From IMG/VR virus record IMGVR_UViG_2698536559_000001, positions 1-5,754 of that record: DNA of 5,754 nucleotides; one strand, written 5' to 3'. Below the pieces are notes generated by a model. The model did no database searches, was not told the origin of the DNA, and saw only the letters and a program-made list of their open reading frames with translations. Source of the DNA: a virus (Monodnaviria > Loebvirae > Hofneiviricota > Faserviricetes > Tubulavirales > Inoviridae). The translations under genes were made by a program, and so were the position numbers. Below are positions 844 through 2,624 of this stretch, piece by piece. How positions within the stretch are numbered: position 1 is the first letter of the stretch; each line of letters opens with the position of its first letter.

Positions 844-1026
844 ATGCAAAAGACAGAAATCCGGCTACAAATACCCGTTGATGTAATAAAGAAGATAGAA
901 AAAATTATCGAACGACAGAATATAACTGTTGATGATTATATTGTTTCATCTGTTTCAGAAGTTGCTGACCGTGATTTTCGCAACATTGTTAAGCCTTTCT
1001 CTTTTGATTTTGGGGGGTGGTCGTGA
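844..1026 (+). CDS. Hypothetical small hydrophilic protein (60 aa), possible ribbon-helix-helix-like DNA-binding protein
   Basis: ATG 844 to TGA 1024-1026 with a weak GTGAG ribosome-binding site upstream. Sequence MQKTEIRLQIPVDVIKKIEKIIERQNITVDDYIVSSVSEVADRDF has a short strand-like segment (IRLQI) followed by two helix-like segments, as in CopG/Arc-type folds; it has no signal peptide or transmembrane segment. Its end overlaps the pIII start by 10 nt. The fold assignment is inference. Confidence 0.4.
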   Translation: MQKTEIRLQIPVDVIKKIEKIIERQNITVDDYIVSSVSEVADRDFRNIVKPFSFDFGGWS

Positions 1027-2624
1027 AATTAAATAAAACAATGACAGCGTTTTTATTATTTTCTCTGTCTTTCTCCTGTAATGTCCGTGCTGATGCTTCA
1101 CTGGCAACAAATACTTTTACATCTGAGTTATCAGGTGTGATTAACCGTAAACTGATTTCTCTTGGTGCTGATGCCGCCGCAATATCTGCAACGCTTTCCG
1201 GTTATTCGCGTGCGGCAGCTTCTTTTGCGTCAAATTATGCGGCTTCAATTGGAATATCATCTTCGGCAATGACCTGGAGTACGCTTGCTTATGGGCTGGG
1301 TGTAACGACTGTCAGTATTGGTATTTATGCTGTTGGTAAACCTTTTGCGGAAGAAATTGCAAAGCTGGCTCTTGAGAAAAACGGGTATAATGCTTTTTTC
1401 TCGACACCTGCCATGTCCAGTGGCTCTAAAGTCTGGATTGGGTCAATGTATTCTTGTGGCTCTGTTATCAGTACATCTCCTTTTTCAGTGGCTTCGCAGC
1501 TTTTAAATTGTCTTTCGGCTGAATCTTCTCCGTCTCTGACTCGTTCCTATTACTCCCCTAAGACTACTGTTTCTTCTCTTGAAGGTTACACTTTTTACTA
1601 TATTTCTAAGTATAATGGTCGATGGTCTGAAAGTACTTTATATGTTTATTCCTCAGTATTAGGTTCTGATTCGGATACTTATTGTGACCAGGGACAGGTG
1701 CTTTTTACACCTTCAGGGGGTAGCTCATCCTGTATTGCAGCGGTTACTGAGAATCCGTTTTCATCTGATTATTCCACACCAGTTATTTCAGGTAATAATC
1801 TTGCTTCTCAGGATATTGCCGATATTCTTAATGGACTGACAAAGCAGTTAGATGGCCTTTCATCTTATGACGGGGTTTCATCGTCTTCATTGTATTTTAC
1901 TGCTTCTGATGTTGATAATTATCGCTCGACTGTAGATATGTCCGGTGGTGATTCCGGTGGTTTCACCGGAACAGGAGAAATAGCCATACCGCCTACGCCG
2001 GAAGGTGACACGGAATCATCTGGCGGTAAATATACACCTCCGGTTGTTGATCCGGATTTTACCCCAGTTTCTGGTAATGGCAGTTCTGGCTCCAGTGGCG
2101 GAACGGGGTCAGGCACCGGAACAGGCACCGGAACAGGTAGCGGAACAGGCACCGGAACAGGCACCGGAACAGGCACCGGAACAGGCACCGGAACAGGCAC
2201 CGGAACAGGCACCGGAACAGGTACCGGAACAGGAACAGGTACCGGAACAGGTACCGGAACGATAACCGGCGTCGGAACAGGGTCTGCCAGTACCACGGTA
2301 ACAGGTGATGCCACGGTAAATGTTAATGTGACCGTGACAAATGATTTTGGTACTGCACCGGATGTATCCACGCCAGATATTTCATCACCTGAGCCATCAT
2401 CATTTATCTCTCCGTTGTGGGATATGTGGCCTTCTGCGCGTGATTTTTCACTGACAATTCCACGGGGTCAGTGTCCTGTTTTTACATTCAATATCTGGAA
2501 TAAAGATTATCAACTGGATACTTTTTGTGTGCTGCTTGATACCGATGAAGTCAGGGCCACTTTCAGGGTGATTATGACGCTGATTGGCTCCATGCTTTCA
2601 TTCTTTATTGTTCTTCGGTCCTGA
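1017..2624 (+). CDS. Minor coat / adsorption protein (pIII-like), about 530 aa
   Basis: N-terminal signal peptide ([22 protein letters not shown] then DA), a long central Gly/Ser/Thr linker including (GT)n, and a C-terminal hydrophobic anchor ([18 protein letters not shown]) preceded by a Cys-containing segment, matching the pIII domain plan of Ff phages. The start is ambiguous: GTG 1017, GTG 1023 or ATG 1041, with a G-rich stretch at 1012-1020 as possible Shine-Dalgarno. The N-terminal domain does not resemble M13 N1/N2 as far as I can judge. Confidence 0.75.
2112..2261 (+). repeat. Tandem 12-nt repeat (GGCACCGGAACA, about 12.5 units) encoding a (Gly-Thr)n linker inside the pIII-like gene
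   Basis: Direct reading: near-perfect head-to-tail copies of GGCACCGGAACA, with variants GGTAGCGGAACA and GGTACCGGAACA and one 6-nt half unit at 2232-2237. The unit length is a multiple of 3, so copy-number change keeps the reading frame. Confidence 0.9.

Follow-up and report, generated by a model that had tools for sequence, protein, structure and literature searches.

The locus examined here raises the question of whether a filamentous prophage far from the Ff phages (M13/fd/f1) carries an adsorption protein with a receptor-binding head of its own kind. The DNA is a 5,754-nt stretch of inovirus sequence (IMG/VR record IMGVR_UViG_2698536559_000001, positions 1 to 5,754), which we call the window. 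It is the morphogenesis block of a filamentous (inovirus) prophage of the Zot type, with every gene on the + strand, and one of its open reading frames (ORFs) encodes a protein in the place of the phage adsorption protein pIII. In Ff, IKe, If1 and CTXphi it is through its N-terminal domains that pIII binds the pilus and TolA, and exchanging these domains can change the host range. A sequence-only reading of the window, made without database searches, had placed the part of the pIII-like protein before a Gly-Thr linker at 1017-2100, and this agrees with an ORF at 1017-2624 that encodes 535 aa and in which a run of G[TS] dipeptides begins at residue 362 (nt 2100). We propose that residues 27-345 are the exposed pIII-type head, that a variable module within it would meet the receptor, and that heads are swapped by recombination; we put the probability of this reading at about 0.6.

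Searches for relatives of the head

Residues 1-360 had no match in Pfam (E≤0.1), in the PHROGs or among PDB sequences, and the one NCBIfam match was at chance level (E 0.057, 13 bits against a cut-off of 167 bits). At the same Pfam threshold, the window protein, P0003 and P0007 all lacked a match to the Phage_Coat_A family PF05357, and to the IKe-type pilus-binding domain PF21443 as well. In positive controls, M13 pIII scored 218.5 bits against PF05357, IKe pIII scored 34.7 bits against PF05357 and 217.3 bits against PF21443, and both proteins landed in PHROGs annotated as attachment proteins. Searches of all PDB sequences with phmmer and with hmmsearch of the family profile returned zero matches at E≤10, and BLASTP against M13 and IKe pIII gave chance alignments only. 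When the family profile (A4) was aligned by hhalign with a profile of the N-domains of M13, If1, IKe and I2-2 (A9), the probability was 0.06% (E 0.73), and the sole aligned piece was 13 columns long and lay in the Pro-rich tail. Fold searches with AlphaFold2 (AF2) models also found no match; this is a weak negative, since the models were of low to moderate confidence.

The sequence-only reading had held this region to be unlike the Ff receptor-binding domains, and had proposed a homology search of residues 1-360 and a structure prediction. At the level of sequences and profiles (Pfam, PHROG, BLASTP and hhalign) the unlikeness was borne out, and the homology search brought up no relationship to any characterised pIII N-domain. 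No fold was matched from the structure prediction either, but both AF2 models were weak, with a mean predicted local distance difference test score (pLDDT) of 54.6 and 62.5. By these comparisons, then, the head is a domain family without a detectable relationship to any characterised pIII N-domain.

The family is a small one. When 1.84 billion representative proteins were scanned exhaustively with HMMER, a profile of four sequences gave 8 matches at E≤0.001, and word-indexed searches with a single sequence and with alignments, in which low-complexity words took up the list of 8000 candidates, gave 3, 5 and 9 matches. The exhaustive scan thus bears out that the family is small. The named relatives among the matches listed are hypothetical proteins from Escherichia coli and Salmonella enterica only, with 96, 64, 41, 38, 36 and ~31% identity, and the N-domains found in these two host species fall into at least seven sequence types. 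No similar head is encoded in 50,697 deposited phage genomes, and a scan of one genome per species seeded with two conserved motifs found no relative. IMG/VR held nine loci, and our literature search found no paper on this prophage family.

How much weight should the difference from M13 be given? In comparisons of the Zot protein, the nearest deposited phages were inoviruses from saliva metagenomes (39% aa identity), followed by phages of Pseudomonas, Vibrio (including the CTXphi group), Ralstonia and Xanthomonas, so that the phage lies far from the Ff group. Because of this distance an Ff-like N-domain was never to be expected, and its absence is less telling than the sequence-only reading had implied.

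Cassette exchange

When the window was compared with the type-B prophages of E. coli, DNA homology stopped at 847 and restarted at 1788 (L001) or 2100 (L002). The cassette between these limits is ~66% identical, whereas its flanks are ~91% identical, and 847-2099 found any match in only 27 of 5426 complete E. coli genomes, every one at ~66% identity. Segment-wise Nei-Gojobori estimates for the window against L001 gave synonymous divergence (dS) that was saturated, at 1.6-2.5, over a small ORF upstream of the pIII-like gene and over all of residues 27-345; in the signal peptide (residues 2-26) the proportion of synonymous differences (pS 0.76) was too high for dS to be estimated. In contrast, dS was 0.12-0.28 in the coat, DUF2523, Zot and secretin genes and in the C-terminal domain of the pIII-like protein itself. 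Because dS is saturated in the one part and low in the flanks, the small ORF together with the whole head (~847-2100) is a much older cassette on a recent common backbone. Its right boundary is probably at or near the repeat DNA of the Gly-Thr linker.

Within the head, nonsynonymous divergence (dN) from L001 was 0.147 for residues 27-135 and 0.526 for residues 136-257, while dN/dS in the backbone was ~0.04-0.28. The 60-aa protein of the small ORF is 46-48% identical to its counterparts in L001 and L002, and from this low identity and the saturated dS we conclude that the small ORF travels with the N-domain cassette. The same protein has weak matches to Arc/ribbon-helix-helix-like PHROGs (E ~0.02), and the Salmonella relatives have no called gene at its position.

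Anatomy of the head

Residues 1-360, described in the sequence-only reading as rich in Ala, Ser and Thr, contain 19.4% Ser, 8.6% Ala, 8.3% Thr and 9.4% Gly, and are better called mainly Ser-rich. In an alignment of seven family types, conservation was highest in residues 87-135, where pairwise identity averaged 54% and 14 of 49 columns were invariant; W..AYGLG, NGY..PAM and a Gly-rich hydrophobic segment all fall in this block. Residues 136-222 were the least conserved, with a mean pairwise identity of 29% across the family. Comparison with L004, whose protein is 96.8% identical to that of the window, placed 14 of the 16 nonsynonymous codon differences, and 7 synonymous ones, inside residues 143-191, which are a small mosaic or hypervariable patch within the variable module.

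The number and spacing of Cys residues known from Ff are absent, as the sequence-only reading had noted, but the head is not free of Cys, having four (147, 165, 223 and 239). C223, D224, G226, C239 and A242 are invariant in the family alignment A4 and occur in all A5 sequences that extend over these columns, and C223 and C239 probably form a disulfide. Every relative has an even number of Cys residues (4 or 6), which fits an oxidised extracytoplasmic domain. The two AF2 runs, with mean pLDDT as given above and predicted template modelling scores (pTM) of 0.47 and 0.57, agreed in secondary structure: helices at ~33-120, a helix and a pair of short strands within 138-164, a stretch at 169-205 that was modelled poorly, three strands at 208-241, and helices at 264-303. 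The strands of the variable module were predicted at residues 138-144, 148-152, 208-214, 227-232 and 238-241.

The internal hydrophobic stretch of the sequence-only reading is indeed present, at residues 88-107, and distinguishes the head from the Ff, IKe and If1 ectodomains, but it is not beyond chance for the composition: its 19-residue Kyte-Doolittle mean was reached by 2965 of 5000 shuffled versions of the mature domain in which the composition was kept (59%). The corresponding peaks were 0.51-0.76 in the pIII ectodomains of M13, IKe and If1 versus 1.35-1.76 in family members, the Salmonella relatives reaching 1.76. A crude sum on the Hessa scale came to +3.7 kcal/mol for the stretch, +3.1 to +5.0 for the family and at least +9.6 for the Ff, IKe and If1 ectodomains. 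The genuine IKe anchor scored +3.6 on the same crude scale, about equal to the internal stretch, and given this anchor score the sum cannot decide membrane spanning. That the stretch copies the membrane-spanning helix of the coat protein of this phage was considered and rejected, as BLASTP gave no alignment.

Start, linker and C-terminal domain

The true start of the pIII-like gene, judged from its surroundings, is likely GTG 1023, which is preceded by a G-rich Shine-Dalgarno sequence at 1011-1016. ATG 1041 lacks one, and GTG 1017 is an unlikely start because it is too near that at 1011-1016. These same six positions form a G6 homopolymer where the small ORF meets the start of the pIII-like gene, and L004 (97% identical) has G5 there. 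With G5 the small ORF ends differently and a TTG-initiated ORF from further upstream is fused to the pIII frame, and P0001 is annotated in this way; either slippage at this site or a sequencing difference may account for G6 versus G5.

The predicted signal peptide aligns with MSFLKN…ACA/ET of the E. coli relatives. Arrays of the 12-nt linker repeat were located by Tandem Repeats Finder at 2110-2269, and linker length varies markedly among relatives, that of L002 being ~30 residues longer. The C-terminal domain is nearly identical among the E. coli relatives and matches phrog_7187 and phrog_3942, both of unknown function, whereas Ff pIII falls in PHROGs 8482, 4150 and 22527. Its last ~80 residues are 27% identical (E 3e-8) to the protein in the same slot of Inovirus D_HF5_61, and a tblastn search of deposited phage genomes detected no similar C-terminal domain. 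An hhalign comparison with the C-terminal domain of Ff pIII put the Cys…Cys motif in register with a probability of only 2.5% (E 0.018). The architecture is of the pIII type throughout, with a signal-peptide-like N-terminus, a low-complexity linker, a Cys pair 18 apart, a hydrophobic anchor and a short basic tail. From synteny and this architecture, and not from demonstrable homology, the protein would be the pIII-equivalent of the phage.

Gene context and features of the window

The window DNA is ~90-92% identical to chromosomal prophages of human E. coli isolates. Related E. coli prophages are inserted between hcxB and ybiB, adjoining an IS110-family transposase and a replication endonuclease, and Salmonella prophages have the gene order Rep_trans, G5P, 74-aa coat, pIII-like homologue, DUF2523, Zot, secretin. 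One morphogenesis block is joined to different replication/integration modules in the two hosts: in E. coli (L001/L002, 2846-5817) the IS110-family transposase and a 667-aa replication endonuclease lie between hcxB and ybiB and are followed by a phospholipase D family gene, and in Salmonella (L016-L018, 6045-7512) Rep_trans and G5P adjoin a ParE toxin gene. A 7.9-kb uncultivated virus genome (UViG) in IMG/VR, L003, is 99% identical, and the window maps across its overlapping ends, as for a circular or tandem genome. Several E. coli genomes have 2-6 matching places, and the type-B cassette has a median of 2 places per positive genome, which suggests tandem or multiple lysogeny by this phage family.

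Features of the window, all positions counted from its first letter.
Feature	Position (nt)	Strand	Basis or remark
ORF with hydrophobic C-terminal half, 57 aa	279-452	+	upstream of coat gene; faint PHROG matches
Major-coat-type gene	455-706	+	weak Phage_Coat_B match; phrog_2186 'virion structural protein'
Small ORF, 60 aa, soluble	844-1026	+	between coat gene and pIII-like gene
pIII-equivalent gene, 535 aa (adsorption/minor coat)	1017-2624	+	ORF list; slot between coat and DUF2523 genes
Predicted signal peptide, residues 1-26	1017-1094	+	n-region Lys, hydrophobic core and VRA-D cleavage-type site, read from sequence
Conserved module, residues 27-135	1095-1421	+	Ala/Ser-rich helices, W..AYGLG, Gly-rich hydrophobic segment, NGY..(T/E)PAM
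Hydrophobic stretch, residues 88-107	1278-1337	+	Kyte-Doolittle 19-residue mean 1.35; AF2 pLDDT <50
Variable beta-rich Cys module, residues 136-257	1422-1787	+	Cys 147, 165, 223, 239; dN 0.526 against L001
Hypervariable patch, residues 143-191	1443-1589	+	codon differences between window and L004
C-D-x-G-(Q/E)-(V/I)…C hairpin, C223…C239	1683-1757	+	conserved; AF2 pLDDT 78-87
Residues 258-345	1788-2051	+	two helices (including DVDNYRS), then Pro-rich tail predicted disordered
Gly-Thr/Ser dipeptide linker, residues 362-415	2100-2261	+	regular-expression search of protein; 12-nt tandem DNA repeat
C-terminal domain, residues 424-535	2286-2621	+	PLWDMWP motif, Cys486…Cys504, hydrophobic anchor 515-533, tail …LRS
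DUF2523 gene, pVI position	2642-2929	+	after pIII-like gene
Zot/pI gene	2941-3999	+	after DUF2523 gene
Secretin/pIV gene	3996-5255	+	after Zot gene

The 57-aa ORF is a candidate for a pVII/pIX-type minor coat protein. Past the coat gene, 18 nt from its stop, there is a hairpin at 724-745 (GGGCGG-ATAT-CCGCCC, then T6) whose extended stem has a predicted energy of -17.7 kcal/mol (RNAfold). It looks like an intrinsic terminator and its position matches that of the terminator after gene VIII in Ff phages; a simple scan did not list it. At the other end of the window, 3' of the secretin gene, 5256-5754 is GC-richer and looks non-coding. Matches to it occur in 1301 of the 5426 complete E. coli genomes, with as many as 10 in one genome; some are on plasmids, and most carry no annotated feature. 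It accounts for nearly all of the 1324 genomes that match the window as a whole. This region looks like a dispersed repeat, and Rfam contained no RNA family matching any part of the window, 5256-5754 included.

Proposed role of the head and alternatives

We propose that the signal peptide would export the protein, that the C-terminal domain and its anchor would hold it first in the inner membrane and then at the tip of the virion, and that the flexible Gly-Thr linker would present the head. The variable, disulfide-containing, beta-rich module may then contact the primary host receptor and set the host range, while the conserved helical and hydrophobic module may be a structural core or may engage a conserved host component, such as a TolA-like co-receptor or the membrane. 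New specificities would arise when recombination replaces the whole head together with the small ORF, over the stretch from just after the coat gene to the linker repeat DNA. By analogy with known adsorption proteins, a receptor-determining role of the head is plausible. It is consistent with the data because the cassette has been exchanged on a ~91% identical backbone, variation is focused in one sub-module, and at least seven N-domain types exist; together, cassette exchange, focused variation and type diversity are the pattern known for receptor-binding modules.

Several points weigh against this proposal. Receptor binding, incorporation into the virion and the production of particles by the prophage are all inferred. 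The homology of the C-terminal domain to that of Ff pIII is statistically unsupported (2.5%), and the two fall in different PHROGs. The saturated dS shows that the cassette is of foreign origin, not that it was selected for receptor binding. Lastly, the AF2 models are weak, and the two-module picture is drawn from secondary structure and conservation, not from a reliable fold.

The conserved block lends itself to another interpretation, in which the Gly-rich hydrophobic segment at residues 87-122 is membrane-active, either as a fusion-peptide-like or re-entrant segment at entry or as a true transmembrane segment in the producing cell, and the N-terminal module serves envelope penetration, not receptor recognition. 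The segment does lie within the most conserved block of the head, it is far more hydrophobic than the Ff, IKe and If1 ectodomains, with a Hessa sum near that of the IKe anchor, and AF2 packs it without confidence (pLDDT <50). However, a stop-transfer at 88-107 would put the Cys module in the cytoplasm, a poor fit with the even number of conserved Cys residues and with the topology of pIII. Moreover, 59% of shuffles match its hydropathy, buried core helices are likewise hydrophobic and conserved, and the low pLDDT may only reflect an alignment of 14 sequences; on balance we regard membrane activity as unlikely. We find it rather improbable that the head is a very diverged homologue of Ff N1/N2, of the pilus-binding domain of IKe or of CTXphi N1 that keeps the fold and the TolA/pilus mechanism but lies below what sequence methods can detect. 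Such domains do evolve fast, the head is also secreted, Cys-paired and partly beta-rich, and the fold searches used models of pLDDT 54.6-62.5, so their negative outcome is weak; the sequence and profile searches described above speak against it.

Every relative is either a prophage copy in a chromosome or a UViG extracted from a genome, no cultured phage carries the head, and the prophage family was absent from the literature that we searched. The protein might accordingly no longer serve adsorption; the prophage would then be defective or domesticated, and its protein would act for the host, at the surface or after secretion, or have no role. We think this very unlikely, as the morphogenesis block is whole, with backbone dN/dS of ~0.04-0.28, the conserved N-domain module is under purifying selection, the ends of the L003 UViG overlap as they would in a circular or tandem genome, and cassette exchange among lineages implies active spread. 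A more speculative scheme, which we hold to be quite improbable as a whole, would make the W..AYGLG/Gly-rich hydrophobic element a membrane-inserting device by which the phage enters outside the Ff route of pilus retraction and TolA, with an exchangeable receptor module and a need for the 60-aa protein. If it were true, the co-travelling 60-aa protein could be, for example, a chaperone or an exclusion factor matched to the receptor type.

The reading that we prefer, an exchangeable receptor-binding head, has some practical bearing. Filamentous prophages of this kind occur in some enterotoxigenic E. coli-like and other human E. coli isolates and in Salmonella, and the tip protein would set their host range and hence what they can spread. 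What is new here is the extent of the cassette, the small ORF that travels with it, a conserved signature of AYGLG and the hydrophobic segment, and a hypervariable patch. The analysis also defines an unannotated domain family that at present has no function in Pfam or the PHROGs. The boundaries, in the region downstream of the coat gene and in the Gly-Thr linker repeat, give a direct design for finding the receptor. The heads also offer new binding modules for M13-based targeting, comparable to a library approach (PMC12477597). The general picture of inoviruses is unchanged: divergent pIII heads are the rule, and a Zot-type inovirus distant from Ff is expected to have a head of its own.

Comparison with known systems

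The protein shares with g3p of Ff its slot, which follows the major coat gene and precedes the genes of pVI, pI and pIV type, a signal peptide, and an N-terminal head on a low-complexity Gly-rich linker. The C-terminal Cys pair 17-18 residues apart, the hydrophobic anchor and the short basic tail are also common to both, as they are to If1 and IKe. Unlike the N1-N2 region of Ff (PDB 1G3P/2G3P), the head of the window protein is ~320 residues long without an internal Gly linker, and its N-terminal third is helical and hydrophobic. Its Cys residues at 147, 165, 223 and 239 contrast with the three disulfides of the M13 precursor (25/54, 64/71 and 206/219), and its linker is (Gly-Thr)n where that of Ff is GGGS/EGGGS. 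With g3p of IKe and I2-2 it has in common that these are modular adsorption proteins of enterobacterial filamentous phages whose relatives differ in the pilus-binding module; unlike them, it lacks PF21443 and PF05357 and has no BLASTP similarity.

CTXphi pIII (OrfU) is also combined with a Zot-type backbone, and Vibrio and CTXphi-group phages are among the relatives by Zot. The N-terminal domains of CTXphi pIII reportedly bind TolA and the toxin-coregulated pilus (TCP), have a fold unlike that of Ff N1 and can retarget fd, and the role proposed for the head would follow the same functional logic. At the level of sequence the two differ, as the family profile found nothing at E≤10 among PDB sequences, a set that includes the complex of CTXphi pIII-N1 with TolA. 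The nearest deposited inoviruses are Inovirus D_HF5_61 (OR148978.1) and Dulem virus 52 (PP511687.1), with a Zot protein 39% identical and homologous C-terminal ~80 residues. Their heads also begin with Ala-rich helices and a short hydrophobic segment, but their linkers are Pro-rich, not Gly-Thr, and they come from saliva metagenomes. Homology of the Ala-rich helical N-terminus and of an 'SW.ALA' segment to these nearest deposited inoviruses was considered and set aside, as hhalign gave a probability of 0.23% and the likeness is an impression only.

Among chromosomal filamentous prophages of the Enterobacterales, the UPphi/CUSphi/YpfPhi group is found in E. coli and Salmonella, has g3p as its most variable protein with GGGES linker repeats, and integrates at dif via XerCD (PMC7307601). 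Membership of the window in this group was rejected, since its E. coli relatives sit between hcxB and ybiB with an IS110-family transposase and have a Gly-Thr linker. Set against all of these systems, the window presents an undescribed family of head domains on a familiar inovirus chassis.

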